Position numbers and translations under genes: made by a program. From an uncultured archaeon (GTDB taxonomy: Archaea > Thermoproteota > Nitrososphaeria > Nitrososphaerales > Gagatemarchaeaceae): DNA of 64,000 nucleotides. Position 1 is the first letter of the stretch, and every line of letters starts with the position of its first letter. The notes beneath the pieces are model-generated. The model was not told where the DNA came from, searched no databases, and saw nothing but the letters and a program-made list of their open reading frames with translations. Where the stretch lies: assembly GCA_963817525.1 (NCBI GenBank), contig CAWFOU010000007.1:1088001-1152000 (forward strand), in the 5' to 3' direction. Shown piece after piece: positions 1 to 19,999 of the stretch.

Positions 1-1635
1 CAATTGACGCCGTAGCGCCTGACCTTCTCCAGGTCCAGTCCGCGCTTCCTGCACATCGTCTCGATGATGTGTAGCAGCCCCCAACCGCCGAGGTTGAGGG
101 TGAAGGGCATCGCGGCGCGGCGGAGGGGGTTGCCATGGCTGTCCCTCAGCGAGTCCCTCCTGATCATCTTCGAGAGGTGCCGGTAGCAGGCGTAGTAGAC
201 CGCGAGCTGGGACTCGTCCAGCATCTCCGGGGTGAAGGCCCGGCTCTTGATCCGCCCGAGCGGCACGTTCTGCATCGGCGTGACGGTGAACTCCGATGGC
301 ATCGTCCCCACTTGCATGTCGCTGAGCCTGTTCACCATGGCCACGGTCTCCCAGTTGTCCTCGGGCATCTCCGCCATCTGCCCCACCTGGACCGTGAAAG
401 CGGGGCGCCAGTAGGCACGGTTCATCGCCCTCACCCCTGCCGCGACTATCTCCTGCCAGGAGCCGTCCGGGCCTATCTTGAGCGGCAGCGTCTTGTTCGG
501 CATGTGGATCTGCGCCAGCCTCTCGCTGCCCGTCTCGAGGCCGACCTGGACGCCTATCCACTTGTCCGGGCCCGCCCCGACCACCGAAGATATCATCTTG
601 ACGAGGTCGGGATACCCGGCCGGGACGGAGATCCTCCCGTAGGTCGGGTTCGCGTAGGCTATCCCCTTGACCGACATCACGGCGCGGAAGAGGTCTCCTA
701 TCGCCTCGGGGTTCGGGGTGTAGTGGGGGCCGTGATGATAGGCGAAGATCTCGTCGGTGTGGAGCCAGGCGCTCTTCCTCCCCGCCCTGGCGTTGACCTC
801 CACCTCCTTCTGGACCATCTCGGGCGTGTAGTACCTGATCGGCCTGAGGGTGACCTCGCAAAAGTCGCAGCCGATGCCGCAGCCGCGCATGATCTCGCTC
901 AGGGCCTTCACCGTGGGCCCCCTGATGAGAGGGATGTCCTCCAGGGTCGGGAACTGCTTGCCCGAGTGCGTCCGGGTCACGAAGCGGTCGTGCCTCACCC
1001 AGCTCTTCCGGAATGTGGAGTCGAAGGACTGGAAGCCCTGGAAATAGCCCTTCTCGTATATCGTCTCGTTGGCGATGTCTTCGAGGACCTCGTTGATTAT
1101 GTCGTCGGCCTCGCCCTGGAATGCCAGGTCGATGCCGAGCTCGTCCATCACCTCCGGCATCACCGTGAGCTCCCAGACGCCCGGCCCTCCCACCACGACC
1201 TTGGCCTTCTTCCCTCGCCGAGCCCTGTCGAGCCTCCTCATCAGCCTCTCGAACTCCACCCTGGCCCACGCCTTCGACTGGTCCCCGAATAGCACGGAGA
1301 AGGACATCGACAGAGGCCCTAGGCTCAACGGGTCCATGGTGTAGACGCCGACTATCTCTGTGTCGTCCTTGATGAAGGAGCTCGCGAAGTCCTCGTGGGC
1401 GATGACGACGTCCTCTTTCGGGTGGCGCGCCAGGAGCGCGGACTCTAGCTTCCTGAGGGCGTAGGGCGCGAGGACCGCCCTCCCGTTGTCGTCGGGCGTC
1501 CGGCCTCCCTTCAGGAACCTGTAAAGGAACTCGGGCACTATCCCGCTCGGAGCGCACGGCAGAAAGTCGAGCAGGGGGGAAGTTGTTGTACTCGCGCGAG
1601 AGGCTTGGGTCTGAGACGAAGACGTACTTTGCCAT
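1..1635 (-). CDS. Archaeal radical SAM protein (B12-binding/radical SAM-like); runs off the window edge; +1 frameshift at G6 run 1574-1579
   Basis: Manual translation of the minus strand gives EIMRGCGIGCDFCEVT (CxxxCxxC). The N-terminus MAKYVFVSDPSLSREYNNF joins PLLDFLPCAPS... only if one base is removed from the G6 run. SD-like GAGGAGG lies upstream of ATG 1635. Confidence 0.85.
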   Translation of the reverse strand, partial: MAKYVFVSDPSLSREYNNFPPARLSAVRSERDSARVPLQVPEGRPDARRQREGGPRALRPQEARVRAPGAPPERGRRHRPRGLRELLHQGRHRDSRRLHHGPVEPRASVDVLLRAIRGPVEGVGQGGVREADEEARQGSAREEGQGRGGRAGRLGAHGDAGGDGRARHRPGIPGRGRRHNQRGPRRHRQRDDIREGLFPGLPVLRLHIPEELGEARPLRDPDALGQAVPDPGGHPSHQGAHGEGPERDHARLRHRLRLLRGHPQADQVLHARDGPEGGGGQRQGGEEERLAPHRRDLRLSSRPPLHPEPRGDRRPLPRRDVGQGDSLREPDLREDLRPGRVSRPRQDDIFGGRGGPGQVDRRPGRPRDGQREAGADPHAEQDAAAQDRPGRLLAGDSRGRGEGDEPCLLAPRFHGPGGADGGDARGQLGDRGHGEQAQRHASGDDAIGVHRHADAERAARADQEPGLHPGDAGRVPARGLLRLLPAPLEDDQEGLAEGQPWQPPPPRRDALHPQPRRLGAATHHRDDVQEARTGPGEGQALRRQL

Positions 1636-1695
1636 CTAACGCCCCTCCTCACACCGCTTCCGAGCTGTGAGGGGGGTCTCCATGCCATGTGCGCC

Positions 1696-2154
1696 TTACG
1701 GTTCGTCCCTGGTCAGGGACATCTCCCGCTGGAGCTTCTGGAGGAGATGACGAAGGGAGTCCTGCTCGTCGGGCGTCAGAGCCTCGAGGGCCTTCTGCAT
1801 GAACCTGTGATACTTCAAGGCGACCGCCTCCTGGGCAGCCCTCCCTTCGTCGGTGAGCTCTATGATGGTGGCCCTCCTGTCTCCGCGGCGCGACGACTTG
1901 CGTATCAGACCCTTGTGCTGCAGCCTCTCCACTATTCCAGTGAGGTTCGCGGGGGTGACGAGCATCTCGTCGCTTATCTGCCTCATCCTCGACGCGCCCT
2001 TCTTCGCGATCACCCTGAGCGCGATGAACTGAGGCTGGGTCAGGTGTTCCTTTGCGAGAAGCCCCGCGATTGCGCGCGTCATGGTCTTGTAGGTAGCAGT
2101 CACCGTGTTGTAGGTCTCGGTGTGACGCTCGTCAAGCACCATCCCGTTGGCCAC
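1696..2154 (-). CDS. MarR-family transcriptional regulator
   Basis: LTQPQFIALRVI...VTPANLTGIVERLQHKGLI...DRRATIIELTDEG; divergent from the DLH/MFS genes; start uncertain (2142/2154/2175). Confidence 0.9.
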   Translation of the reverse strand: MANGMVLDERHTETYNTVTATYKTMTRAIAGLLAKEHLTQPQFIALRVIAKKGASRMRQISDEMLVTPANLTGIVERLQHKGLIRKSSRRGDRRATIIELTDEGRAAQEAVALKYHRFMQKALEALTPDEQDSLRHLLQKLQREMSLTRDEP

Positions 2155-2184
2155 GGGGCTGAAGGTAACCGCCAAATTATAAAT

Positions 2185-2200
2185 AGTTAATGCCTTTACT
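2185..2200. promoter_or_regulatory. Imperfect palindrome AGTTAA-N4-TTTACT next to the TATA box, possible MarR operator
   Basis: Inverted repeat with one mismatch in the short AT-rich gap between marR and the DLH gene, beside TTATAAATA (2177-2185). Confidence 0.35.
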
Positions 2201-2215
2201 GACTTTGCTTCAAGC

Positions 2216-4869: not shown

Positions 4870-5643
4870 CTATTTTGTCAGCGAGGACGCGAGCCGGTCG
4901 AGCGCGACGGAGATTCCATTCCCCCGCGCCCGGAGCAGGCTGACCAATCCCTCGGAGCTCACCGTCGGCTCCAGTGGGAGCTCGACCAACACCCTCGACC
5001 TTAGGCTGCGCTCAATGGATTCTCGGTCAGGCTTGCCGAAAGGATAGAGCACCCTCCCCTTGCTCGCCTTGAGATACGCCATGTTCAACACTATGCCTTC
5101 CACGGGCACCCGCTCGATCTCCGCGAGGCGCCGAAGCCTCGACACGACGGTCGTAGCTCCCTTCGAGGGCGTCGTGACCAGGATCAACGTTGATTTGCCT
5201 TGGAAGAGCGCGAACGCGGAGAGGAGCTCGTCGCCGGTGCTCGGGGGGAGGTCGACGACGAGGAAGTCAAGCTTCCCCCAGTTCGTCGACGCGAAGAGCT
5301 GGGTAATCAGGCTCTGTTTCTTGTCCCCCCTGAGCGGTATCGGTTTCTCGCCGGTGAACAAGGCTAGGGACATGACCTTCAGTCCCGCGACCTTCTTGGG
5401 CTCGAGCCCCCTGGCGGTGCTGCTGACCGGGGGCCTCACCCCCAGATAGCCTGGGACGCTGGCCCCGTGGATGTCGATGTCGAGCACGCCTGTCCTGTAG
5501 CCCTTCCGCTCTAGCGAGAGGGCCAGCCCGCAAGACACGAAGCTCTTGCCGACCCCGCCCTTTCCGCTCCCGACGAGGATGACCCGGCCAACGGCCTCCA
5601 TCTTCTTCCTCGAAGCTGCCCCCTCGAAATCTATCCAAGCCAA
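4870..5643 (-). CDS. Mrp/MinD-family P-loop ATPase, probable Mrp-type HypB partner of HypA
   Basis: SGKGGVGKS deviant Walker A, DIDIHGAS, DFLVVDLPPSTGDE; lacks the C-terminal CxxC of ApbC/Nbp35; directly downstream of hypA; TTG start inferred. Confidence 0.85.
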   Translation of the reverse strand: MAWIDFEGAASRKKMEAVGRVILVGSGKGGVGKSFVSCGLALSLERKGYRTGVLDIDIHGASVPGYLGVRPPVSSTARGLEPKKVAGLKVMSLALFTGEKPIPLRGDKKQSLITQLFASTNWGKLDFLVVDLPPSTGDELLSAFALFQGKSTLILVTTPSKGATTVVSRLRRLAEIERVPVEGIVLNMAYLKASKGRVLYPFGKPDRESIERSLRSRVLVELPLEPTVSSEGLVSLLRARGNGISVALDRLASSLTK

Positions 5644-5663
5644 CGGCTCTCTCCGCCTCCCCT

Positions 5664-6101
5664 TCAATCTAACACGACCCTCGCGATCCGGATGTCCTCG
5701 CCCCTTGTGGCTGTCGAGTCGGAGCTCCCGCAGCCGGGGCATCTGACGAAGCTGGGATACAGATACGGGAGAAAGTGCATCGGGAGCTCGACGCTGTCGG
5801 GCTCGCGGATCCTCAGGTCGTCGGGCACTGTGAGCAGCTGTTTCCTTGTCTCGTCCATCCCCCATTCCTTTCCGCACCTTCTGCACGTGAACGAGGCCTC
5901 TGTGACGCGGACTACCACCCTCGCGTCTTCCAGCCTCGGTCCCCTCATCAGGAGCCGCAGCGCGGCCTCAAGGGCCTTCACGTCCAGCTGCATGAGCTCC
6001 CCGACCTCGATCTCGACCGAGGCCACCTTCTCTGCGTTTGCCTTGTCTGCCTCAGCGAGGAGGGAGTCGACGATGCTCTGCGCGATTCCGAGTTCGTGCA
6101 A
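5664..6101 (-). CDS. hypA: Nickel metallochaperone HypA (long-insert, Thermococcales-like)
   Basis: N-terminal MHE Ni-binding motif; two CxxC (CRRC, CPGC) separated by a long insert. Confidence 0.93.
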   Translation of the reverse strand: MHELGIAQSIVDSLLAEADKANAEKVASVEIEVGELMQLDVKALEAALRLLMRGPRLEDARVVVRVTEASFTCRRCGKEWGMDETRKQLLTVPDDLRIREPDSVELPMHFLPYLYPSFVRCPGCGSSDSTATRGEDIRIARVVLD

Positions 6102-6168
6102 TTGCGGGCCGCCGTTTCCAAACCGGGCGGTCTACTAAACGAATTGGTCTTGGGCGCCAGGCTGGTCG

Positions 6169-7404
6169 CTAGAGCGCGGCCTTGACGGGCGGCCCGACTG
6201 GAGGTCTGTCGACCTGGTGCGGCTCGGCCGTCTCGCCGAAGTAGGCGTCCATCAGCCAGCTCCAGCCTCCTTGGATCGTGGACCAGTATATCTTCGCGAA
6301 CTCCCTCTTCATTTCGTAGCGCATGAAGGTCGGCTTTTCGGGCCCGGGCGCGGCATCGTAGGTCCCTGAGACGAAGAGCGCCCTCCGTCGTCCCGTTTCC
6401 ATCGGGCAGTTGATCCTCCCGTTGTATTCGAAGACCTCTCCGCCCCCGTTCAGGTCAGACGCGAGGTTCTTGGCGATTGTCTCCGCCTGCAGGTGCGCCA
6501 CCACGCCTGACTTTGAGATTGCTATGCTCGTGGCGTCGCCGAGCGCGTAGGCGTCCGTGCAGTCCTTCACTCTCATGGTGCGCTTGTCGGCAGGTATCCA
6601 TCCCTCCTCGTCCCCGATTCCCGAGGCCAGGACCACGTCAGCTCCTCTATGCGGGGGCACCGCGATGAGCAGGTCGTAGTCCTGGCTCTCCCCTTCGAGG
6701 TCGTAGATCTTCTTCGCGGACGGGTCGACGTGATCGGCTGCGAAGAACGGGACTACCTCGATGCCCCTCCTCTCGAACATCGGCTGTATCACCTCGGAGA
6801 TGTGCTCGGCCGGATACGCCCGGGGGTAGGGAGTGACGAACTTGATCCCCACCGATTTCCTGTTTCCGCGCTTCCGGAAGAACTCGTCTATCATGAACGC
6901 GGCCTCGTTCGGGGACGGAGGGCACTTGTGGGGGACGCTCGTGATGGCCACCACCACCTTCCCCCTCTTGAAACGCTGGAGGGCCTCCCATATCTTTGAC
7001 GCCTCGACGCCTCCGGTGTGAAAGTTCAACGAGCCCTCGAGCAGGCCGGGCATGAGCTCGGGCCTGGCGACGGCCCCCGTGGCGAAGACGACGTAGTCGT
7101 ACGACATCGCCGTCCCTCGTCGAGTCCTAAGGACCTTCTCTTTCATGTCGACGCTGGCCGCTCCGTCGCTGACGTATTCCACGCCCTTCTTCAGGAGTGT
7201 CGTTTCGCGGCGGACGGCCACCTTGGGGTCCGCCCCTTTGAACGCGATGTCGAGGTTGGCGGGCTGGAACGCGTGCTCGTCCCCTTCACCCACGAGCTGG
7301 ACGCCGACCTTGCCGCTGCGTATCTGTGCGTGGAGGTCACGGGCGAGGAGATTGGCGAGTAAGGTGCCCCCTGACCCCGCACCGACGATTACGACCCTCT
7401 TCAA
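6169..7404 (-). CDS. sqr: Sulfide:quinone oxidoreductase / FCSD-family flavoprotein
   Basis: GAGSGG FAD motif, HKCPPSPNE, GDAT...SKSG, second Cys in INCPMETG; follows tusA/dsrE. Confidence 0.85.
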   Translation of the reverse strand: MKRVVIVGAGSGGTLLANLLARDLHAQIRSGKVGVQLVGEGDEHAFQPANLDIAFKGADPKVAVRRETTLLKKGVEYVSDGAASVDMKEKVLRTRRGTAMSYDYVVFATGAVARPELMPGLLEGSLNFHTGGVEASKIWEALQRFKRGKVVVAITSVPHKCPPSPNEAAFMIDEFFRKRGNRKSVGIKFVTPYPRAYPAEHISEVIQPMFERRGIEVVPFFAADHVDPSAKKIYDLEGESQDYDLLIAVPPHRGADVVLASGIGDEEGWIPADKRTMRVKDCTDAYALGDATSIAISKSGVVAHLQAETIAKNLASDLNGGGEVFEYNGRINCPMETGRRRALFVSGTYDAAPGPEKPTFMRYEMKREFAKIYWSTIQGGWSWLMDAYFGETAEPHQVDRPPVGPPVKAAL

Positions 7405-7408
7405 GGAG

Positions 7409-7657
7409 CTACGCCCTCTTCTTTGTGACCCGGACGTCTATCCGTGTGTAGCCGTTCTCGTCGGCGATTTCTAGCACCTGATTCCCCGTGTGAGCCGCCC
7501 ACGCCTGTATGTCGCTCTTCGCGGCGGGGTCGGTCGCCCAGACCTCCAGGACCGACCCAAGTTCGGCAGTCCTGTACGCCCTGAAGAGGTCGGTGAGCGG
7601 CCCGGGGCAGAAGCTGCCCCTCGAGTCGATGACCTTCTTCTGGCCGGCTGCTTCCAT
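7409..7657 (-). CDS. tusA: Sulfurtransferase TusA family
   Basis: IDSRGSFCPGP (CPxP), LEVWATDPAAKSDI. Confidence 0.92.
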   Translation of the reverse strand: MEAAGQKKVIDSRGSFCPGPLTDLFRAYRTAELGSVLEVWATDPAAKSDIQAWAAHTGNQVLEIADENGYTRIDVRVTKKRA

Positions 7658-7669
7658 CCCTGCCGCCCC

Positions 7670-8131
7670 TCAGATGAAGATCGTCTGACCGCCTTCAGCG
7701 AGGTGAAGGAAGGTCGAGGCGCCCACGATGTCGTCGACCTCTGGGATGAAGTCCTCCTTCTTGAGCCCCATCATCTCCATCGTGGTAGAGCACGCGTGGA
7801 AGTGCACCCCCATGTCGTGCGCGTTGGCGACCATCTCTGGTATCGTCGGGATCTTCAGCTGTTTTATGGCAGCCCTTACCATCGGAGTGGTCATGCCTGG
7901 ACTCGCATCCGGGCCGACCTCGAGATTGGCCTCTTGGTTCCTGTTGATCACGGCCATCCCCCAAAATGTGAAGAAGACGTGAACCTGCATTCCCATGGCT
8001 GCCCCTGCGCTTGCGAGCATGAATGCAGGATAGGCCATGTCGAGCGATCCCTTCGAGAGTATTATCGAGAGCTTGTGGACCTGCTGAGTTTCAGGCTCCG
8101 ACCTTAATGCGGTCATTTCTGCCAACTTCAA
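7670..8131 (-). CDS. dsrE: DsrE2 (DsrE/DsrF/DrsH-like) sulfur carrier
   Basis: KGSLDMAYPAFMLA, FFTFWG, HACSTTMEMMG, VGASTFL. Confidence 0.9.
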   Translation of the reverse strand: MKLAEMTALRSEPETQQVHKLSIILSKGSLDMAYPAFMLASAGAAMGMQVHVFFTFWGMAVINRNQEANLEVGPDASPGMTTPMVRAAIKQLKIPTIPEMVANAHDMGVHFHACSTTMEMMGLKKEDFIPEVDDIVGASTFLHLAEGGQTIFI

Positions 8132-8179
8132 ACACCTGTGTGGTGGAGAGGCGTCCCGATATATAATTCCTGGACACGA

Positions 8180-8195
8180 TTCTCGGCCGAGAGAA
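8180..8195. promoter_or_regulatory. TTCTCA-N4-TGAGAA-type site (TTCTCG-GCCG-AGAGAA) upstream of the dsrE-tusA-sqr-hypA operon
   Basis: 13 nt from minus-strand TATA TTATATAT (8166-8159); motif shared with five other promoters. Confidence 0.6.
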
Positions 8196-8216
8196 CGGCC
8201 TCGGGAGGCAGGCGCC

Positions 8217-8567
8217 CTAGCCGCTTCCGTTCGCGCGGTCCACGATCGCGTTGGAGATCTGCTCTGCGGTCTTCCCCACGGTCGGGATTCCCAAGCGCTG
8301 AGCGGTCTCGATGAGCGCCGCGTTGGTCTCGGCCGCGGACGCCGCGGGAGCCGGAGCTGTCCCGACGGCGGGAGACGTGACCGATGCGAAGGTGCTCGCC
8401 AGGCTGCCCAGTCCGACTGGCTTCTGCGCCGCCCCGGCGGCGAACTCGTTCTTAGCCTGCCCCAGCGCCCGGGCGAGCTCCGGGATCTTCCTGGGCCCCC
8501 ACATTATGAACACCACAACCAGCGCCCCGACTATCAGGAGCTGCAACGGGTCGTCGAACAATGACAT
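8217..8567 (-). CDS. tatA: Twin-arginine translocase subunit TatA/E
   Basis: N-terminal TM followed by WGPRKIPELARALGQAKNEF. Confidence 0.9.
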   Translation of the reverse strand: MSLFDDPLQLLIVGALVVVFIMWGPRKIPELARALGQAKNEFAAGAAQKPVGLGSLASTFASVTSPAVGTAPAPAASAAETNAALIETAQRLGIPTVGKTAEQISNAIVDRANGSG

Positions 8568-8616
8568 GTCTTGTCGAGCCTTTGGTCTCGGGGAGCTTTA
8601 AAAAATCCGTGGGCGA

Positions 8617-8632
8617 TTCCCAACACTGAGAA
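8617..8632. promoter_or_regulatory. TTCCCA-ACAC-TGAGAA site in the divergent tatA/hypC promoter
   Basis: 13 nt from TTATTA (8646, + strand) and about 13 nt from TTTTAAA (minus strand, 8603). Confidence 0.65.
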
Positions 8633-8677
8633 TACCACCCAACGGTTATTAGAGCGGGGGCGCCCGCTGGCCTCGCC

Positions 8678-8917
8678 GTGTGTGTGACCAGGGTGGCGCA
8701 GGTCATCTCTGTCCAGGGAGACAAGGCGAACGTGAAGTTTGTCGAGAGCGAGGCGACGCGGGTCGTGGACGTGTCGATGGTCGAGACGAGGAAGGGCGGC
8801 TACGTCGAGGTCTTCGCCGACCAGGCCCTCTCGAGCCTGACCAAGGCGGAGGCGGAATGGAGGAAGAAAGTCTGGCTCGACCTGAGGGCCAAGCTGGAAG
8901 AAGCGACCGTCGATTGA
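8678..8917 (+). CDS. hypC: HypC/HupF-like small protein (degenerate)
   Basis: N-terminal MC, OB-fold-like pattern, C-terminal helix (KAEAE); Phe replaces the conserved His of GDYVLVH (GGYVEVF). Confidence 0.65.
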   Translation: MCVTRVAQVISVQGDKANVKFVESEATRVVDVSMVETRKGGYVEVFADQALSSLTKAEAEWRKKVWLDLRAKLEEATVD

Positions 8918-9702
8918 GGAAGCTAGGCGACGGGGGAAAGAAGCTCTCTGGGGAAGAGCGGGGCGAGCTCCTGCACGCCAAGCACGCGCTGGCCCCTAAC
9001 AGCTTGGGATACTGCGGGCCCGACGAGAACGGCAGGATTCTGGAGCACCTCCACGACTCCCTCGTGGACGAGAGCCTCGACTCGACCCTGAAGAGGTTTG
9101 AGGCCGCCTACCCCTTCGTCAGCATGATAGCAAAGTCCACGGGGAAGAGCCCGTTCGACTACGAAGTCGCCGAGGCCTACTGGATAGGGAACGGCCTGCT
9201 GGACAGGGTCGAGCCCTCCGAGTTCTACGAGTTCACGCACGCAGGCCTGAAGGCGCGCCTCCCGAAGCCGGAGATGAAGAGGCTCTTCCGGGACCTCGGT
9301 CCAATGGCGAGGCCGCACCACACGTTCTATGTCCTGGGGATGTACAGCCGCCCCAACGTCCAGTCCTCGCTCCAGCACAAGCTTCTCAACCTCATGGACT
9401 CGTGCAGGATATCCTGGGGGAAGGTCGTCGAGGTCAAGAGCAAGACGCTCGTCGTCGAGCGAGCCCCCCTCTCCCTGGGGGAAGACGAGCTGCTGAGCCT
9501 GACGCCTCCGGAGAAGAAGGAGATCCACTACGACAGCGGGATCCCCAATTTCGAGGGCATCAAAGGCGGCGACTGGGTCACGATCCACTGGAACTTCGCC
9601 AGCGAGAAGCTGACAAGACGCCAGCTCACGAACCTTAGGGCGTACACGAAGATGGACATCGAGGCGACTAACCGGCTCGTCGCTTCGCGCAAGCCCGACT
9701 AG
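8914..9702 (+). CDS. DUF6390-family protein
   Basis: APNSLGYCGP, AEAYWIGN, PHHTFYVL, MDSCRISWGKV, GDWVTIHW; TTG overlaps the hypC stop. Confidence 0.8.
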   Translation: MRKLGDGGKKLSGEERGELLHAKHALAPNSLGYCGPDENGRILEHLHDSLVDESLDSTLKRFEAAYPFVSMIAKSTGKSPFDYEVAEAYWIGNGLLDRVEPSEFYEFTHAGLKARLPKPEMKRLFRDLGPMARPHHTFYVLGMYSRPNVQSSLQHKLLNLMDSCRISWGKVVEVKSKTLVVERAPLSLGEDELLSLTPPEKKEIHYDSGIPNFEGIKGGDWVTIHWNFASEKLTRRQLTNLRAYTKMDIEATNRLVASRKPD

Positions 9703-9723: not shown

Positions 9724-10980
9724 CTGACCAACTCGCCCAGGAGCGGATGGCTCTCCCGGAGGCTGTCGGCCCTGACCACGCAGCCCGGATTCGCAGGCCC
9801 TTCCGCGAACCTGGGGTCGTCCGCGTCTTTGCTCATCATCCTGACCATGGGGTACGCCGTCTACGCGGCGGACAGGACGGTCCTCTCCTCGGTGCTCGCG
9901 CCGATCTCGACCTCGCTCTCCCTTACCAACTCCGAGATTGGGCTGCTGAGCGCCGCGCAGTACATCGGCGTGACCTGCGTGGTGTTCGCGGCGGGCTTCC
10001 TCTCCGACAGGTACGGCAGGTGGCCGGTGATAATCAGCGGCCTGGCCGTCTTCACCGCCTTCACGTGGCTCATCGGGCTGTCGTCGAGCTTCCTCGAGGC
10101 CTTCGTCTTCCGGCTGGTCAGCGGGTTCGGGGAGGGAGCCTTCTGGCCCGTGGCGATGGCGAGCGTGGCAAGCTACTTCAAGGGGCGGAAGGGGCTGTCG
10201 CTCGGCATATTCTACGTCGGGTTCGACGCGGGGAGCGTGGCCGGGCTCTCGATAGGAGGGGCGGCCTTCTCCCTCTCCTCGAGCTGGAGGCCCGCGTTCT
10301 TCGTCGCCCCGCTACTCGGTCTCTTTGTAATAGCCGGCGCGCTTGTCGCTCGAAAGAGGCTCGCCGCGGCGGGGCAGGGCGTCGGCCACATCGGGCTTGG
10401 GAAGGACGCGCTGCGGCTCCTTCGACGGAGGAACGTGGTCGTGATCATGGCGTTCGCGCTCCTCGCGACCTGGGCAAGCGTGTGGCAGGTCGTCTTCCTC
10501 CCGTACTACTTCTTCAAGGTCATGCACTTCACCGTCCTCTCCTCGGCGCTCCTGTCGTCCCTGGTCACAGTAGCGGGAGCGTGCGGAAAGATAGCCCTGG
10601 GCGGCCTCTCCGACTCTGTGAGGAGGAACAGGCTCCTCGTCGCCGTCACGTTCGCCACCCTCCTCTCCTACCTGCTCTTCTTCTCGTCCCTGAGCTTCGC
10701 CCTGGACATGGCCGGGGCGCTCTCCATGGGCTTCTTCAGCGCCTCGATCTTCCCAGTGGCGCAGGCCCTCATGACCGACAGCGGATCTGGCATGACGGGG
10801 AGCGCGCTGGGGCTGAGCACCTCGGCCCAGTCCGTCGCTACCGTCTTCTCGCCCATCATCGCGGCATCTCTGTTCACGCTCGGGGTAGGCAGAGCTGTCG
10901 CGCTGGACGCACTTATTCCGATTGCGCTGGCCCTCGTCGTCGCCCTGTTTCTGCGCGAGCCGAGGGCGGCGGCCTCGTAG
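9724..10980 (+). CDS. MFS transporter; possible CTG start 9724 (first TTG 9829)
   Basis: GFLSDRYGRW motif A, about 12 TM helices; GGAGGGG 8 nt upstream of the CTG. Confidence 0.9.
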   Translation: MTNSPRSGWLSRRLSALTTQPGFAGPSANLGSSASLLIILTMGYAVYAADRTVLSSVLAPISTSLSLTNSEIGLLSAAQYIGVTCVVFAAGFLSDRYGRWPVIISGLAVFTAFTWLIGLSSSFLEAFVFRLVSGFGEGAFWPVAMASVASYFKGRKGLSLGIFYVGFDAGSVAGLSIGGAAFSLSSSWRPAFFVAPLLGLFVIAGALVARKRLAAAGQGVGHIGLGKDALRLLRRRNVVVIMAFALLATWASVWQVVFLPYYFFKVMHFTVLSSALLSSLVTVAGACGKIALGGLSDSVRRNRLLVAVTFATLLSYLLFFSSLSFALDMAGALSMGFFSASIFPVAQALMTDSGSGMTGSALGLSTSAQSVATVFSPIIAASLFTLGVGRAVALDALIPIALALVVALFLREPRAAAS

Positions 10981-12178: not shown

Positions 12179-13874
12179 TTGTCGGACGATGCAAAGAAGG
12201 AGACTGAAAGTATCAACACCAAGGGGCTGGCGAGACGCAAGCTTCTCACGGGTGCTGTGGGAGGACTCGTCGTCGGCGCGGTCGCGGGGACCGCGCTCGG
12301 GTCACTTGGGCTTTCCAAAGACGGTAACTCAGCAAGTCACTCAGACCCAGACCGTAACTTCTATTCAATCCGTTTCTGTCCAGGCCGGGCTCCCCGCGAC
12401 GTGGGACTATCAGACTGACGTGGTCGTTGTCGGTGCTGGCGGCGCAGGTCTGTCCGCGGCGACAGGCGCACTGGAGTCTGGGGCGAAGGTCATCGTCCTC
12501 GAGAAGTCAGGGGCGGTGGGCGGCACCACGGCGCTCTCCGGCGGGGGGATGTGGGTTCCAAACTCCAGTCTGGCGGTAGCGGCAGGTCCGCCCAACACAA
12601 TCTCGCAATTCAACCTCCAGGAATACTTGAGCGCCATCGGGGAGGGCGAGCAAGATCAAGACCTCACCACGACATACCTGCAAGGGGCGCCTGGCTGGGT
12701 GGATCACCTGATTCAGACCTACGGGATGAAGTTCGTCCTAGCGACCACCTTCGTAGCTTACTATAACGTGCCTGGAGCGCAGGGCACTGGGCTTCAGGTT
12801 TCTCCAACCGGCGGTGGTCCTGGTGTCAGCGGAGCAGGGCTCGGGATCATTCAGACGCTCCACGGCGCAGTCACGAACATGGGAGGAACCGTCATGGTTT
12901 CGACCCCGGCCACGGCGCTCTACAAGGACGCCACAGGCCGAATTGTGGGCGCGCAGGCGACTTCCGGTACCTCGACAATCAACATAGGTGCAGGTAAGGG
13001 GGTCATCCTTGCTGCTGGCGGGTACGACCAGAACGCCGCGATGATGGCGAACTATCAGCGGGGTCCGGTTCATCTTACCAGCGCCGTAGCCGGAAACACT
13101 GGCGACGGCATTCAGATGGCCATGTTCGCGGGGGCGGACATCGGCAACATGAACAACGCGTGGGGGTGCCCGCACTACAACACCCCGAGCGGCGGCATCC
13201 CAGACTGGTCCCTTATACGCGGCAAGCCTGGAGCGATAGTCGTCAACAGCGCGGGGCAGAGGTTCGCCAACGAGTCGTCCGCTTACCCGGTCTTCAACAG
13301 GACATTCTACGAATGGTCGAACGCCATATACGGCTACCCGAACCTGCCAGGATACACCATCATAGACAACACGTTCAACACCAAATACGGCTTCGTGACA
13401 TATGTCCCCAATTCGACTCCGCCAAGCTATGTGTCAACGGCAAACACCCTTGCAGACCTTGCGACGGCCCTCGGCATCGACCCGGACGGCCTTCAGGCCA
13501 CCGTAACGCAGTTCAACCAGTACGCGGCGAACGGGGTTGACCCTGATTTCCACAGGGGCGAGTTCAGCTTCGATTTGAATACGGCAGGTGACCCGACGAG
13601 GACCGACCTGGCGAACATCTGCCTGGGGCCTATCGAGACCCCTCCCTTCTACGGACTAGAGATAGATCCTGGCACCATAGGCACTTCGGGAGGCCCCAGA
13701 ATAAACTCCAACGCTCAGGTCCTCGACCAGGAGGGCAACACGATTGCCGGGCTCTACGCCGCTGGCAACGACTCGGCCTCTCCGTTCGGGGCGGCCTATC
13801 CGGGCGGGGGAGGCACTGTGGGTCCCGCTACTTTCTTCGGTTGGATTGCTGGCAAAAGCGCGGGAAGCTCCTAG
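12179..13874 (+). CDS. Tat-exported FAD-binding oxidoreductase, 3-ketosteroid delta1-dehydrogenase (KstD)-like; +1 frameshift at 12308-12310
   Basis: Signal peptide LARRKLLTGAVGG is in frame 12179; the body (GAGGAG, GGTTALSGGGMW, FANESSAY, YPGGGGTVGPA) is in frame 12189. The paralog shows the join ...GSLG|FPKTVTQ. Confidence 0.85.
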
Positions 13875-14106
13875 CACCGGAACGCCACGCAGGCGATCTG
13901 ACCCCTCCCCATTGGCAGTGACACAAGACCTAAGGGAGAACGGAGGGTGAATAATTTGAAGCCTCTCTCCGTGCCGCGGTGGGTCTTGGATTATTGAAGG
14001 CCAATTTATGATTGATGTCGGCGGGCCGCAAGACAATCCTGGCCAAGTCGAGGTGGCGATGCTACTATCTCATAGAAGAAAAGTCTCATCCGGTTGTTCA
14101 TGAGAA

Positions 14107-14122
14107 TTCTCACCTCTGAGAA
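14107..14122. promoter_or_regulatory. Perfect palindrome TTCTCA-CCTC-TGAGAA upstream of flavoprotein 2
   Basis: 13 nt upstream of TTAAATA (14136); extra TGAGAA/TCTCA half-sites at 14068-14106. Confidence 0.7.
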
Positions 14123-14165
14123 TCGGCTTCGGGAATTAAATACTCGCCGGACCACAATCAGACCA

Positions 14166-15830
14166 TTGTCTGAAGTGAAGAAAGAATCGGAGAGCATGGA
14201 TGCAAAGGGATTGGCAAGGCGAAGACTCCTCACGGGGGCCGTGGGAGGCCTGGTCGTCGGCGCAGTAGCAGGGGCGGCAGTTGGCTCGCTCGGTTTCCCA
14301 AAGACGGTCACCCAAACACAGACACAAACGATGACGTCCACGAGTTCGACGACGTTGGGAATCCCGACAACCTGGGACTACCAAGCGGACGTCGTCATCA
14401 TGGGCGCCGGCACAAGCGGTCTGTCTGCGGCCCTCGAAGCCGCGGCAGCGGGAGCCAAGGTAATTGTCCTCGAGAAAGAGCCGAGCTCGGCGCTCGCAAA
14501 TTCTGGCCATTGCGCCGGGACCATAGTCGGGGTGAACAGCGCACAGCAGACGGCCGCGGGTATAACGGACTCGCCCTCCATCTACTATGCCGAGTTGACG
14601 GGACCCGGGAGCAACCCTCTCTTCGACCCGGCCGTCGCGATGTCGATTTGCAACAATAGCGGCGCGGCCATAGCTTGGCTGACGCAGCAGGGAATCCAAT
14701 GGGCTCCCTACTGCCCGCTGCTCGACGGCCAGTCTACGGCTCCTCGAATGATGGCCGCTCTGCCGGACTCCTCCACCTACCCGGCCACGCTGAACGCGAA
14801 CGCGGTGAAAGCGGGCGTGCAGATTCTCTATAACACCCCCGTCGGCTCCCTTTACAGGGACCCAGTAAACGGAGTCGTGGGGCTCTCGGCCAAGGCGACG
14901 AGCGGTGTCATCAACGTCAAGGCCAACAGAGCGGTGGTCCTGGCCGCGGGCGACAACGCAGCCAACGCCAAGATGCTGGCGCAAGCCTCCGCAATCCCGA
15001 GCTGGTTCACGACCCTGCCCCCCGAGGGAAGTCCCGGGAGCACAGGAGACGGGATAATCGCGGGAATGGCGGTCGGGGCGGCTCCCGTGGCCTTGGCCAC
15101 CGCTGTCACCGAGCCGTCCTTCGGGTTCGTCGTTGGAAACACAAGGATCGTCCCAGATACCTCGTACGGCTATACACCGGGTTCGACGAATGTCAACGCC
15201 AAGCTCAGCGCCTTCGCATACCAGCCGGCGATACTCTCATACGCCATCTACGTGAACAGTGCCGGGAACAGATACACGAACGAGACGGGCAGCACCGTCG
15301 CTGCGGACACGTTCGCTCTTTCTGACATGAAGTCGTTCATGATCTTCGACAGCGCCCCAGCAAACCTCAACGTGTACATGCACGTCAGCGCAGGACACAC
15401 TCTCTTCAAGGAGTGGCTGGCAGACGGAGCGCTGGCACAGGCGGACACGCTCGACGGCCTGGCCTCATCCCTCGGAATCAACTCGTCAGGCTTGGCGGCT
15501 GGGGTGGCGACGTGGAACGGCAATGTCGCCGCGAACAAGGATTCCAGCTTCGGCAGGACGATTTTCGTCTCCCCGATCAGCACAGGGCCTTTCTATGGCA
15601 TCCCGGCCACTCTGTTCTCGCTTGAGCTCGCCAACGGCACCCTGAACGTCGACGTCGCGACACAAAACGTGCTCGATGAGTCGGGCAACCCCATCCCGAG
15701 ACTCTACGCTGCGGGCGATAACGGCAGGGCAGGGGTGATGGGAGGCGGGCACGGCACGCACATGGTATGGACCTTCATCTCCGGCCGTCAGGCCGGGACT
15801 AGCGCGGCGTCAGAAACCTCCTTGGCGTAG
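14166..15830 (+). CDS. Tat-exported FAD-binding oxidoreductase (flavocytochrome c/fumarate reductase flavoprotein superfamily), paralog 2
   Basis: LARRRLLTGAVGG Tat motif, GAGTSG, GSTGDGI, IPRLYAAGD; TTG start matches paralog 1. Confidence 0.88.
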   Translation: MSEVKKESESMDAKGLARRRLLTGAVGGLVVGAVAGAAVGSLGFPKTVTQTQTQTMTSTSSTTLGIPTTWDYQADVVIMGAGTSGLSAALEAAAAGAKVIVLEKEPSSALANSGHCAGTIVGVNSAQQTAAGITDSPSIYYAELTGPGSNPLFDPAVAMSICNNSGAAIAWLTQQGIQWAPYCPLLDGQSTAPRMMAALPDSSTYPATLNANAVKAGVQILYNTPVGSLYRDPVNGVVGLSAKATSGVINVKANRAVVLAAGDNAANAKMLAQASAIPSWFTTLPPEGSPGSTGDGIIAGMAVGAAPVALATAVTEPSFGFVVGNTRIVPDTSYGYTPGSTNVNAKLSAFAYQPAILSYAIYVNSAGNRYTNETGSTVAADTFALSDMKSFMIFDSAPANLNVYMHVSAGHTLFKEWLADGALAQADTLDGLASSLGINSSGLAAGVATWNGNVAANKDSSFGRTIFVSPISTGPFYGIPATLFSLELANGTLNVDVATQNVLDESGNPIPRLYAAGDNGRAGVMGGGHGTHMVWTFISGRQAGTSAASETSLA

Positions 15831-15885: not shown

Positions 15886-16827
15886 ATGCAAGAAAAAGTC
15901 GAGCGCGGCGGAAGGGGGGGCCGCTCCGGCGCTCTCCCGATCGCACTGGTGCTGATCGCCATTTTGTTCGGCGCATCCATTCAGCGAGTGAGTGCGGTAA
16001 CCACGATCACGGCGTATCAAGCGCAGACTCCGGTGACCCTCAACGGAGTCGTGTCTCCGGGTGAATGGTCGGATACCCCGCTGGTAAATATCCCAGAGGC
16101 GGGCATGAACGTAGCCTTCAAGCACAACTCAACTGGTCTCTTCATTCTCATGCAGTGGAGCCAAAATCCCTCTACCTGCACCGACCAATATTGCTACGGA
16201 GGCATCGAGTTCGGTTACCTTAACAACACCGGCCCGATGGGTGACACTGCCACTCCCACCGTCATGCTGCTTCTGAGCACGTCTTTTACGGGAGGTTACG
16301 ACGAATTCATATCAAAGGCCGAAGCCACCCCGACATCGGTCGAGTCCGACGGATACAAGACTCAATCCACGTGCGCTCTAAAGCTCTCGGGCACAAGTTA
16401 CACAGCCGAGTGCTATCGGCCCTTCACCCTGAGCAATGCCTCACCCTACGATCCGTTCCCCGGCCTTGTAGCGGGCTCCCCCCTCGAGGTTGCATTCGCG
16501 GTAGGGGAGTTCGACGCGCCAGGGGACCATGCGGCATCGGACATGAGCACCTACGTCTTGACTTTGAGCAACCAGACATTTTCCGCTACTTCGACCTCCT
16601 CATCATCGACGAGCTCCCAGTCCTCGGCGACGATCAGCTCTTCGATAGCCTCGGCCTCCTCGTCGACGTCGACTGCATCATCGACTCAAACTAGCAGCAC
16701 ATCAACGCTTACCTCGGTCTCCACCTCGCCCACTGCAGCGTCGACCTACGCGGAAGAACTTCTGGTCTTGTCCGTGGGGTTCGCGGTGCTGATCTTGGTG
16801 GTCCTGACGAAATACGAGAGGAACTGA
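15886..16827 (+). CDS. Secreted, C-terminally anchored DOMON/CBM9-like protein with Ser/Thr linker
   Basis: Signal peptide, PVTLNGVVSPGEWSD DOMON-like start, candidate Met (GPMG) and His (GDHAA) ligands, S/T-rich stalk, C-terminal TM. Confidence 0.6.
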   Translation: MQEKVERGGRGGRSGALPIALVLIAILFGASIQRVSAVTTITAYQAQTPVTLNGVVSPGEWSDTPLVNIPEAGMNVAFKHNSTGLFILMQWSQNPSTCTDQYCYGGIEFGYLNNTGPMGDTATPTVMLLLSTSFTGGYDEFISKAEATPTSVESDGYKTQSTCALKLSGTSYTAECYRPFTLSNASPYDPFPGLVAGSPLEVAFAVGEFDAPGDHAASDMSTYVLTLSNQTFSATSTSSSSTSSQSSATISSSIASASSSTSTASSTQTSSTSTLTSVSTSPTAASTYAEELLVLSVGFAVLILVVLTKYERN

Positions 16828-16830
16828 GTT

Positions 16831-17448
16831 ATGGAATTCCTCGGGATACAGATGCTGACGTGGCACGACTTTGTCGTGGAGCTCCACACCGGAGTCGCTG
16901 TCTTCGCAATTCTCGCGATAGTGCTGCGGGTTCTCGTCGACGCCGGCCAGAGGGGGAAGACCAACCCCTCGGGGAGAGTCCTGGAGATACGACAGGGAAC
17001 AGACTTTGTCGCCTACGCCGGGTCGGTAGTCGCCGTGATCTTCCTGGTCGCATCGGGCATAACCGGCTATTACATCCTGCCATACTCGACGCTCGTCAGC
17101 CAGACGATCTACCTCAACAAGGCATTCACTGCACTCGGCGCGCTGTTCTTCTGGTCGGCTTACGCCTTCCTGAGATACTGGTCCGGCCCCAAGATGTGGG
17201 AAAAGAAGGGGCTCTACGCGGTCGCGGTGGCGACTGCCTTCCTCGGCATTCTCTTCACGACGCTCGCGGGCTCAATCGGGGCGGAGCTTTCAATCGGCCA
17301 GTCCGTCCTTACCCCAGTCTACAACGCCCTCTCGATAAACTTCCGGCAGCTCGCGCTGGAGCCGATAGACGTGGAGATAACGGCGGCCCTCCTCGTAATC
17401 GCGATTCTCATAGCGGCGTTCCTCAAACCGTCGCAAACCAAGCGCTAA
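16831..17448 (+). CDS. Membrane protein (DUF2231/cytochrome b-like)
   Basis: About 5 TM helices, N-terminal WHDFVVELHTG His pair; 3 nt after the upstream gene. Confidence 0.55.
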   Translation: MEFLGIQMLTWHDFVVELHTGVAVFAILAIVLRVLVDAGQRGKTNPSGRVLEIRQGTDFVAYAGSVVAVIFLVASGITGYYILPYSTLVSQTIYLNKAFTALGALFFWSAYAFLRYWSGPKMWEKKGLYAVAVATAFLGILFTTLAGSIGAELSIGQSVLTPVYNALSINFRQLALEPIDVEITAALLVIAILIAAFLKPSQTKR

Positions 17449-17560: not shown

Positions 17561-18106
17561 ATGATTCAAGAGATGCAGGGGAAGTGGGCGGGGAGGTTCA
17601 TCGGGGCTGCCATAGTCCAGGGCCTAATCGTGGCCGTCATAACGGTGCTCATCGTGGAGCCGTGGACCTACTTCAACGTAAAATCTTACTTCAGCCCGGC
17701 CATGGTCATCGCGGGAGGCGGGGGAGGGACGTGGATGTTTACGGGCTACGTCCTCTATCTGATGGTGGGCGTGGTCGCGGTGGCGGTCACCGCGGTCTTC
17801 TACTTCTACATCGAAGACGTAATGGGGAGGCAGTACCACGGTCTGACGAGCGCTCTCGCCTGGGGGCACTTCATCCTGATGAACGTGGGAGTCGCCGGCT
17901 CGATGCTCCTGATGATCTGGGGGGGGTGGGTCGCGGGGTATGCGAGCGCCGCGGTCGCCGAGGGTGGCCTAGGTTTGACGGACGAGCAGATTCACGTGCG
18001 GTACTTGAGCCAGCTCGTCGACCCCATAGGCACGCTGGTCCTCCTGGCAGTTCTTGGGGCAGTTCTTGGCGGCGTGGGATTCGTCATCAGAAGCGGGACG
18101 CGCTAA
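17561..18106 (+). CDS. Hypothetical 4-TM membrane protein with intramembrane His
   Basis: Hydrophobic helices, LAWGHFILMNVG; own TATA box. Confidence 0.7.
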   Translation: MIQEMQGKWAGRFIGAAIVQGLIVAVITVLIVEPWTYFNVKSYFSPAMVIAGGGGGTWMFTGYVLYLMVGVVAVAVTAVFYFYIEDVMGRQYHGLTSALAWGHFILMNVGVAGSMLLMIWGGWVAGYASAAVAEGGLGLTDEQIHVRYLSQLVDPIGTLVLLAVLGAVLGGVGFVIRSGTR

Positions 18107-19321: not shown

Positions 19322-19939
19322 TTGAAGCCTGACGCAATCGATGCCAGGATACTTGGCGCTCTCTTCGAGGACGGGAGGGCGTCCAAAAGGCAGATTGCCA
19401 AGAGGACCTCATTGACAACTCCGACAGTCTCCGCCAGGATGGACAGGATGCTCAAGGCCGGGATGATCAAGAAGTTCGTGCCGATACTCTCGCCAGACTC
19501 AGTCGACCGCGGCGTCTCTGCGATGATAACGCTGAAGGTGACCCCGTCGTCGGTCGAGAAGCTAGCGAGGGACCTCTCTAAGCTGCCAGAGGTCGAGAAC
19601 ATCTACCTCACGACGGGGCACGGGGTGACCATGAAGGTAGCCACAGGCGACGTCGCTGGCCTTCAGACGTTCCTCGGCCGGAGCGTGCTCGCGAGGTCTG
19701 GCGTGAGCGTCGCCTCGAGCCAGATCATAACCAGCGTGGTCAAGGAGGAGCCCGCGCCCCTCTCGTCCGCCGCGCTCACCATGAACTTGGAGTGCGACTA
19801 CTGCCATGAGGAGGTCGCTCGAGCGAGACCTTACACTATCGCCGCCGCCCCGTCGCGCTACTACTTCTGCTGCAAGACTTGCAGGAACGCCTACCTGGAC
19901 AAGTTCGGCTCGAGGCTAGCCAAGACGAAGCGCAACTGA
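19322..19939 (+). CDS. Lrp/AsnC HTH + TRASH-domain copper-responsive regulator (CopR/CopT-like)
   Basis: DAIDARILGALFEDGR HTH; C-terminal CDYC...YYFCCKTC. Confidence 0.88.
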   Translation: MKPDAIDARILGALFEDGRASKRQIAKRTSLTTPTVSARMDRMLKAGMIKKFVPILSPDSVDRGVSAMITLKVTPSSVEKLARDLSKLPEVENIYLTTGHGVTMKVATGDVAGLQTFLGRSVLARSGVSVASSQIITSVVKEEPAPLSSAALTMNLECDYCHEEVARARPYTIAAAPSRYYFCCKTCRNAYLDKFGSRLAKTKRN

Positions 19940-19947
19940 GAGAATAG

Positions 19948-19963
19948 CTTTACATCCGTAAAG
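19948..19963. promoter_or_regulatory. Palindrome CTTTAC-ATCC-GTAAAG upstream of copA
   Basis: 7 nt upstream of TTTAAG (19971); same arms as 19275-19290. Confidence 0.75.
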
Positions 19964-19999
19964 GCGGGGGTTTAAGACCGCCTGCGCCTTCGCACAGCC

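Follow-up and report, generated by a model that had tools for sequence, protein, structure and literature searches.

In the cst operon of Staphylococcus aureus, a TusA/DsrE-domain sulfurtransferase accompanies a sulfide:quinone oxidoreductase (SQR). In Thermococcus kodakarensis, ATP-bound HypB alters HypA, upon which HypA captures nickel and conveys it to the precursor of the hydrogenase's large subunit, as described in one account (PMC13202556); in the HupF/HupK and HoxL/HoxV systems, a HypC paralogue and an auxiliary scaffold serve the maturation of O2-tolerant hydrogenases, according to another (PMC12134894). Genes that recall all of these systems lie side by side in a 64,000-nucleotide stretch of DNA (contig CAWFOU010000007.1, positions 1,088,001 to 1,152,000; the window hereafter) from an uncultured archaeon assigned to the Gagatemarchaeaceae. 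Here, hypA and the gene of a MinD/Mrp-type ATPase follow a dsrE-tusA-sqr set, and a hypC-like gene and a DUF6390 gene diverge from them. An earlier reading of this DNA, the original prediction, had offered two alternatives for the locus: a scattered hyp system, or a repurposed nickel/sulfur cofactor-assembly or sulfur-handling system. We conclude, with a probability of roughly 0.7, that two known and independent modules were juxtaposed by a lineage-specific rearrangement in a Gagatemarchaeaceae-like, non-ammonia-oxidising archaeon of the Nitrososphaerota. Such a juxtaposition opens no new mechanism; the most useful by-product of the analysis is the HypC-like nature of DUF6390 and its association with hyp clusters.

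Two probable modules at one locus

Open reading frames (ORFs) and family assignments confirmed the gene order that had been proposed. The dsrE-like, tusA, sqr-like, hypA and ATPase genes share the minus strand with tatA, and a plus-strand set, composed of the hypC-like gene, the DUF6390 gene and a gene for a major facilitator superfamily (MFS) permease, diverges from tatA. Between hypA and the ATPase gene lie 65 bp; the other gaps within the minus-strand set are given with the features below.

4870-5598, minus strand: MinD/Mrp-type ATPase (ATPase-type HypB); PF10609, 192 bits; the long ORF reaches 5886, the likely start being the ATG at 5598
5664-6101, minus strand: HypA nickel metallochaperone; PF01155, 88.3 bits against a cut-off of 28.9; TTG start, reading M-H-E
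6102-6168, minus strand: sqr-hypA spacer of 67 bp, without a TATA-like box
6169-7404, minus strand: SQR-family flavoprotein, type II/III-like; NCBIfam type III SQR, 286 bits
7409-7657, minus strand: TusA sulfur carrier, separated by 4 bp from the downstream sqr; PF01206, 66 bits against 28.6
7670-8131, minus strand: DsrE-like (DrsE_2) sulfur carrier, separated by 12 bp from the downstream tusA; PF13686, 125 bits against 25
8217-8567, minus strand: TatA translocase subunit; PF02416
8678-8917, plus strand: HypC-like paralogue; PF01455, 34.2 bits against 28.5; GTG start, reading M-C-V-T-R
8914-9702, plus strand: DUF6390 protein; PF19927, 188.5 bits against 25; TTG start
9829-10980, plus strand: MFS permease; PF07690

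To place this arrangement, we compared it with 26 related loci drawn from a HypA-alignment scan at one genome per species. Nearly all are metagenome-assembled genomes of Nitrososphaerota/Nitrososphaerales, mostly non-ammonia-oxidising Nitrososphaerota, and they include Candidatus Gagatemarchaeum stordalenia and Conexivisphaerales; Pfam was run on 450 of their 464 ORFs, the other 14 lying at the far ends of two loci (L023 and L025). The hypA gene is followed by the ATPase gene at all 26 loci. Neither sqr nor dsrE occurs at any of them, and tusA occurs at one (L021), 4.4 kb away. Hydrogenase-specific genes are frequent: 18 of the 26 loci carry at least one, namely the 13 with a NiFe large and/or small subunit within the locus, that is within 10 kb (L003-L006, L008-L010, L013, L014, L017, L020-L022), together with L002, L011, L012, L015 and L023. 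The HycI endopeptidase is encoded at ten loci (L002-L006, L009-L011, L013 and L015), in nine of which its gene is the divergent neighbour of hypA, and at three (L017, L021 and L023) hypD-hypC-hypE and a divergent hypF stand directly upstream of hypA. No hydrogenase-specific gene was seen at the remaining eight (L001, L007, L016, L018, L019, L024, L025 and L026), four of which are contigs of 3-12 kb.

Two types of hydrogenase are encoded in these relatives. The first is a membrane-bound enzyme of group 1, encoded in the order small subunit, membrane subunit, large subunit; among solved structures, periplasmic [NiFe] and [NiFeSe] hydrogenases come nearest to it. The second is a four-subunit, group-3b-like enzyme. 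Beside the group-1 clusters of L005, L008 and L009 lie genes for NicO nickel permeases and, once, for NikR. The divergent trio of the window, hypC-like, DUF6390 and MFS, recurs at eight loci (L004-L006, L008, L009, L011, L012 and L013, with L011 cut by a contig end), and six of these eight have a group-1 hydrogenase within 10 kb. The window MFS permease is 52-82% identical to the DUF6390-linked permeases of the same eight loci and to one in L007, and the window TatA is 69% identical to the TatA that adjoins DUF6390 in L008. A T. kodakarensis-type pair of HypA and ATPase-type HypB emerges as the standard nickel-insertion pair of non-ammonia-oxidising Nitrososphaerota, flanking group-1 and group-3b hydrogenases alike.

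The assignment of the nickel module rests on its solved relatives and on its residues. The best solved match of the ATPase is 3vx3, the Mrp/MinD-type HypB of T. kodakarensis (expectation value, E, 1.6e-38), a protein also present in the HypA complexes 5aun-5auq, and the sole solved match of HypA is T. kodakarensis HypA, 3a43 (E 1.3e-15). Of the profile cut-offs, HypA passes that of Pfam and misses those of the NCBIfam equivalogs (best 86.6 against 125 bits). M-H-E is the nickel site of HypA, and four cysteines are its zinc site. The window protein, which starts TTG-CAC-GAA, keeps H2 and E3 as well as the CxxC pairs at residues 73 and 121, all of them positions that are invariant or nearly so in 30 members of its subfamily, a distinct group of 145-aa proteins with the conserved insert REPDSxELPLHFLPYLYP. 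In Mrp/ApbC/Nbp35 iron-sulfur carriers, a CxxC motif bridges the cluster. Because this motif is missing from the window ATPase and from all 22 relatives checked, the ATPase is not a carrier of the ApbC/Nbp35 type; it possesses the Walker A motif GKGGVGKS and misses the NCBIfam cut-offs for ApbC and MrpORP.

Functional residues and branch lengths gave no sign of decay in either protein. In a HypA+ATPase tree of 23 rows, from which L015, L022, L023 and L026 were omitted as truncated or frameshifted, the end branch of the window (0.41) is the median, and the window pair groups weakly with the group-1/DUF6390 loci (Shimodaira-Hasegawa-like approximate likelihood-ratio test, 82). No residue change in the alignments separates the window HypA, ATPase or DUF6390 from hydrogenase-linked relatives. 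By analogy, the window pair could act through the nickel-capture mechanism of T. kodakarensis.

The sulfur module is equally recognizable. The SQR-like protein finds its best solved match in human SQOR (8dhk/6oi5, E 3e-35, residues 4-381), and its motifs PHKC and NCP align with KC and SCP of SQOR, the two aligned cysteines being presumably the catalytic cysteines of SQR. The NCBIfam type III model, a selenoprotein subtype, is the only SQR model that it matches, and its score lies under the cut-off of 525. The TusA translation contains the CPGP cysteine motif. The DsrE-like protein misses the NCBIfam DsrE2 equivalog (89 against 210 bits), and among solved structures it comes closest to 2qs7 (E 2e-27), in an alignment that matches the cysteine of its ACST motif. 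Two of the 202 plasmid records carrying an SQR-like match were inspected; both are haloarchaeal, and on each the tusA gene runs into the start of an SQR-like flavoprotein gene, with DUF1641 coming next. Given the retained SQR, TusA and DsrE motifs and the coupling of tusA to sqr on these plasmids, dsrE-tusA-sqr represents a known kind of self-contained cassette. A foreign origin of the cassette was considered and dropped, as G+C is uniform at 0.62-0.63 over 4-10 kb and third-position G+C resembles that of neighboring genes. Literature searches on SQR/TusA/DsrE and on hydrogenase/hypA in Thaumarchaeota returned nothing on this locus, and one on HypA with an Mrp/MinD-type ATPase in nickel hydrogenases returned no paper.

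Taken together, a two-module model for the locus emerges. The first module would be a nickel-insertion and hydrogenase-maturation set, made up of HypA and the ATPase-type HypB with the divergent hypC-like/DUF6390/MFS genes and tatA beside them. Judging from the T. kodakarensis homologs, the ATP-bound HypB would induce HypA to capture nickel for delivery to the precursor of a hydrogenase's large subunit, and in relatives this module directly flanks a group-1 membrane-bound or group-3b [NiFe]-hydrogenase and HycI. The second module would be a sulfide-oxidation cassette, in which SQR oxidises sulfide to a cysteine persulfide, the electrons pass to quinone, and the sulfane sulfur is handed to TusA and DsrE. 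The rearrangement would have placed this second module in the slot that hycI occupies in relatives and removed the structural hydrogenase genes from the neighborhood; the intact hyp genes would then serve a hydrogenase encoded elsewhere, or have been orphaned recently.

The linkage could also be read as a functional fusion, with the nickel chaperone pair and/or the HypC-like and DUF6390 proteins recruited alongside SQR, TusA and DsrE to make or repair, with sulfur from persulfides, a nickel- or iron-sulfur cofactor for some further client. Six genes on one strand with short gaps, a promoter box missing upstream of hypA and the lack of a hydrogenase in the 64 kb speak for such a fusion. Against these stand the conservation of the linkage at 0 of 26 related loci, the occurrence of each module alone elsewhere, the absence of a candidate client from the 64 kb, and the lack of any residue change that distinguishes the window HypA, ATPase or DUF6390 from hydrogenase-linked relatives. 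Neither linkage at the 26 loci nor residues nor gene content yielded evidence of hyp genes working with a sulfur relay, and we regard the fusion as very unlikely. Of the two alternatives in the original prediction, the scattered hyp system fits, since all four hyp-like genes occur in relatives in sets beside [NiFe]-hydrogenase genes and DUF6390 does so in two bacterial plasmids as well. The repurposed system found no support: sqr and dsrE are never beside hypA in the relatives, and tusA-sqr is self-contained elsewhere. The prediction had proposed profiling the neighborhood across archaea and had named an unconserved sqr-hypA linkage as one half of what would refute it; that linkage is conserved at none of the 26 loci. 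The other half was a complete hydrogenase with hypDEF elsewhere in the genome, and the look-ups described below lean against a group-1 large subunit and HycI on the 1.28-Mb contig.

Several related loci merit separate mention. Positions 4572-17057 of L005, from Ca. Gagatemarchaeum stordalenia, hold a complete nickel/hydrogenase island with the order nikR, nicO, hypC-like, DUF6390, MFS, hycI, hypA, ATPase-HypB, small subunit, membrane subunit and large subunit. A B12-binding radical-SAM protein of 619-638 aa is encoded beside the group-1 clusters of L004 (619-2478), L005 (686-2545), L008 (6236-8152) and L009 (18-1187). Frame-split genes were encountered for hypA and the ATPase in L023 (10001-11229) and for the large subunit in L004 (13007-14397); these are either pseudogenes or long-read assembly errors. 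The hypA and ATPase genes of L022, a locus labelled Chloroflexota, are 42-52% identical to those of the window and lie next to a hydrogenase large subunit and a cytochrome b, which may reflect mis-binning or gene transfer. L025, from Spirochaetota, has a distant hypA/ATPase pair beside an ATP-binding cassette transporter of the Opp/Nik type.

Hydrogenase genes in the window and on its contig

The claim that the window holds no NiFe subunit, hypD, hypE, hypF or maturation protease withstood two kinds of search. Pfam families for the NiFe large and small subunits, HypD, HypE, HypF and HycI were found in none of the 66 + 5 window ORFs scanned, and in a six-frame tblastn of the 464 ORFs of the related loci against the 64 kb, the large subunit, small subunit, HycI, HypD, HypE, HypF, NicO and membrane subunit were unmatched at E <= 1e-4. 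Family scans of the window ORFs likewise revealed no other nickel enzyme family and no candidate client in the 64 kb. The cluster is placed near the window's left edge, with 4.9 kb visible beyond the ATPase gene, and the hydrogenase genes of relatives lie 0.1-8 kb from hypA.

Parts of the relatives' hydrogenase neighborhood persist further along the window, among them three genes without a Pfam family:

15886-16827, 16831-17448 and 17561-18106, plus strand: a secreted, Ser/Thr-rich anchored protein and two polytopic membrane proteins

The first two of these, 15886-16827 and 16831-17448, are 47-49% identical by tblastn to two ORFs that come immediately downstream of the large-subunit gene of L004 and L005, and the third is 42% identical to a membrane protein (L008:8312-8947) that lies beside hypC. 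The three genes may represent a membrane or electron-transfer module of the hydrogenase neighborhood. A homolog of the flavin adenine dinucleotide (FAD) flavoproteins of the window adjoins the hydrogenase in L013. Since the trio and these neighborhood homologs are kept, a hydrogenase neighborhood is recognizable in the window. It retains the 15886-18106 genes, the FAD flavoproteins, tatA and a helix-turn-helix gene; the genes absent from it are precisely those for the small subunit, membrane subunit, large subunit and HycI, and dsrE-tusA-sqr fills the place upstream of hypA.

These observations also bear on an alternative in which the [NiFe]-hydrogenase and HycI were lost genome-wide, leaving the hyp genes and the MFS permease gene as an undecayed relic or in the service of nickel homeostasis or another nickel enzyme, independently of the sulfur cassette. 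Besides the neighborhood that was kept while its structural genes and protease disappeared, look-ups beyond the window favor such a loss. The HypA of the window is recorded on a 1,281,378-bp contig. Among the best 120 of 7448 matches to the group-1 large subunit of L005, none lies on this contig, the longest contig among those 120 being 445,719 bp; the best 120 of 341 matches to a HycI profile that drew on both types of cluster likewise include none on it. That such a look-up can succeed is shown by the contigs of L004 (1,612,039 bp) and L014 (355,760 bp), which appeared among the HycI matches as positive controls, so that these matches reached the divergence of L014.

Published gene content points in the same direction. 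The word hydrogenase is absent from the main text of PMC10640624, where Supplementary Data 10 alone lists the genes. There, the group-1 large subunit (K06281) is tabulated in just three of 68 genomes (AcS9-25, bog-1369 and bog-1367), and sqr (K17218) in several others that lack K06281, so that the group-1 hydrogenase and sqr appear as patchy accessory traits in the family. In addition, hypA and the ATPase gene stand without a hydrogenase gene within reach in L001, L016, L018 and L019, and HypA of Helicobacter pylori also serves urease, as stated in PMC13202556. Set against a genome-wide loss are the catalytic and ligand residues, all of them intact, on a branch of ordinary length, and the absence of any other nickel enzyme family from the 64 kb; moreover, the look-ups span the best 120 rows, with one row in each list lacking contig data, the genome may exceed one contig, and just 4.9 kb are visible to the left of the cluster. 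We consider the orphaned hyp set a serious contender, at a little under even odds. On the negative look-ups and the rarity of K06281 in the listed genomes, the chance that the genome lacks a group-1 enzyme is somewhat above one half, a figure for the group-1 type alone.

The juxtaposition of two independent modules must be weighed against several of these findings. The negative large-subunit and HycI look-ups count against it because, if the genome is without a hydrogenase, the intact hyp genes need another explanation. The sample of relatives is distant and does not include the genome of the window itself, the HypA proteins of the 26 loci being 29-60% identical to that of the window by tblastn; the closest HypA relatives, at 70-80% identity, lie on metagenome contigs outside these loci, where close kin could share the sqr linkage. 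The sqr-hypA spacer is a further point against independence. A TATA-like hexamer, [AT][AT]ATA[ACT], is present upstream of hypA in 18 of 21 relatives, usually between -27 and -33, and its background frequency in random 67-nt windows is 3.7%; the window spacer is without the hexamer and offers TTTAGTA at about -38 as the only approximation. As the TATA-like box is missing, transcription from the promoter of the sulfur genes may continue into hypA and the ATPase gene. Such read-through, predicted from the spacer sequence, would amount to a transcriptional link and would fit a chance capture of these two genes into the operon once the rearrangement had occurred; shared function does not follow from it. 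In a stronger version of the link, the archaeon would have no [NiFe]-hydrogenase at all, and its intact, normally evolving hyp machinery, with the hypA unit deprived of its promoter box and transcribed together with dsrE-tusA-sqr, would serve some client other than a hydrogenase, or a function that responds to nickel or sulfide and is linked to sulfide oxidation; we rate this as improbable. The juxtaposed modules remain our preferred reading, and a neighborhood that lacks exactly the structural genes and the protease, with its accessory genes intact, provides a natural test case for hydrogenase-independent roles of hyp genes.

Other features of the window complete the description. Its G+C content is about 63%, and its genes are archaeal in character, among them those for an archaeal-type phosphoenolpyruvate carboxylase, a TRASH-domain regulator, CDC48 and DUF1512; for Gagatemarchaeaceae, PMC10640624 gives G+C contents of 54-62% and genomes of 1.2-3 Mb. 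The secreted protein among the products of the 15886-18106 genes has a stalk rich in Ser and Thr and is anchored at its C terminus. At 12189-13874 and 14094-15830 lie genes for two FAD_binding_2 flavoproteins, paralogs of each other whose linkers are rich in Thr and Gln; the second has a twin-arginine-like leader, 'ARRRLLTG', and the two could be clients of the nearby TatA. At the left window edge, a radical-SAM gene (3-1688, minus strand) runs off the window, with a MarR gene at about 1696-2205 (minus strand) beside it; the plus-strand ORFs 135-1292 and 1687-2190 overlie these two real genes and are spurious. We rejected this radical-SAM gene as an ortholog of the hydrogenase-linked B12/radical-SAM genes of relatives (BLASTP E 0.036). 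The pair at 19322-22162, a TRASH-domain Lrp/AsnC regulator beside a YHS-domain P-type ATPase, is of the kind typical of copper resistance in archaea.

DUF6390 and the HypC-like protein

The HypC-like protein passes the Pfam cut-off and fails TIGR00074 (22.2 against 48 bits). It keeps the N-terminal Cys2, its sequence starting M-C. At the canonical HypC histidine column, His51 in Escherichia coli numbering, Phe is present in all seven DUF6390-linked HypC-like proteins, and His in the canonical HypC of L017 and L021. The TTG start of the DUF6390 gene overlaps the hypC stop codon (TTGA).

DUF6390 is a large family, with at least 1120 clusters at 50% identity in a profile search at E <= 0.001. A feature search placed it mainly in Actinomycetota, together with archaeal clusters, some of whose members also carry the HypC family. 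Eight longer DUF6390 proteins, taken from the 150 best matches, were scanned for further domains: five have an N-terminal DNA-binding domain (ArsR, XRE, PadR and GntR types), one an EamA transporter domain and two no extra domain. The DUF6390 ORF of L009 also bears an ArsR domain. We aligned the window protein with 102 near-full-length sequences picked from the same 150 matches, and across these 103 sequences C34, G92, H136, C164 and H225 are invariant.

To relate these residues to a fold, we turned to structure prediction and profile comparison. An AlphaFold model of DUF6390, with a predicted local distance difference test (pLDDT) of 92.2 and a predicted template-modelling score of 0.90, is all-alpha in its N-terminal half and beta in its C-terminal half. 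A Foldseek search against the PDB gave no match at E <= 0.001; the top match is T. kodakarensis HypC, 2z1c (E 6.4e-3, template-modelling score 0.69 on the target, 82 columns). Profile comparison by hhalign aligned DUF6390 with HypC over 58 columns at 87.7% probability (E 3.4e-6), pairing C164 with HypC Cys2 and H225 with the canonical HypC His column. The model and the profile alignment indicate that DUF6390 contains a C-terminal HypC-like domain that retains the Cys and His of HypC. The alpha domain also has an invariant Cys and His; modelled alone with eight sequences it reached a pLDDT of 52.5, too poor for a fold search.

Gene context links the family to hydrogenase maturation outside the Archaea. 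Two records of a plasmid collection matched DUF6390, and both matches lie within hyp clusters. On a plasmid of Sulfobacillus acidophilus (L027, DUF6390 at 8001-8753), the order is hypF-hypC-x-hypD-hypE-tatA-DUF6390, followed by hydrogenase, protease, hypA and hypB, so that tatA directly precedes DUF6390; on a Mycobacterium plasmid (L028, DUF6390 at 8001-8744), it is hypE-hypC-hypD-DUF6390. Co-folding of the window HypC-like and DUF6390 proteins scored 0.58, the best of three controls being 0.01, with at least 47% of contacts agreeing between runs and a partner pLDDT of at least 78. In the co-fold benchmark, 116 of 157 solved complexes and 2 of 215 mismatched pairs attained this mark; just 18 of those 157 complexes attained it with a score of 0.60 or under, as did both of the passing mismatches, so the score lends weak support to a predicted binding of the two proteins. 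A full-text literature search turned up no paper naming DUF6390.

Our inference is that DUF6390 proteins, built on a metal-binding domain resembling HypC, are accessory proteins or sensors associated with hydrogenases; the fusion of some members to DNA-binding domains suggests a sensor role. With members in hyp clusters of Archaea, Bacillota and Actinomycetota, this uncharacterised family becomes a candidate for a so far overlooked accessory factor, or a sensor, in the maturation of [NiFe]-hydrogenases.

Comparison with described systems

The nickel pair of the window resembles HypA and ATPase-HypB of T. kodakarensis (3a43, 3vx3 and 5aun) in several respects. The hypA and ATPase genes are adjacent; HypA has the MHE N-terminus, two CxxC pairs and the zinc-domain insert; and the ATPase has a Walker A motif and is without the iron-sulfur CxxC. 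The similarity is nevertheless distant (61 bits for HypA), and the window HypA belongs to a subfamily with a conserved insert of its own. Unlike the T. kodakarensis pair, that of the window has no hydrogenase client within its 64 kb.

The sulfur module is comparable to the cassettes on haloarchaeal plasmids, in that tusA lies directly upstream of, and is coupled to, the gene of an SQR-family flavoprotein. Those cassettes continue with DUF1641, which is missing in the window, whereas the window has a DsrE-like gene before tusA. With tusA-sqr-type cassettes more generally, the window shares persulfide carriers encoded beside a sulfide oxidase, but it has no adjacent persulfide dioxygenase.

HypC-like and DUF6390 proteins find their nearest parallel in HupF/HupK and HoxL/HoxV, where, as in the DUF6390 loci, genes for a HypC paralogue and for a second accessory protein stand next to those of a membrane-bound uptake hydrogenase; the overlap of the two genes in the window adds to this likeness. 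The second proteins differ in kind. HupK and HoxV are large-subunit-like, whereas DUF6390 is predicted to join an all-alpha domain to a HypC-like domain of its own, and, unlike the Hup and Hox factors, some members of its family carry DNA-binding domains.

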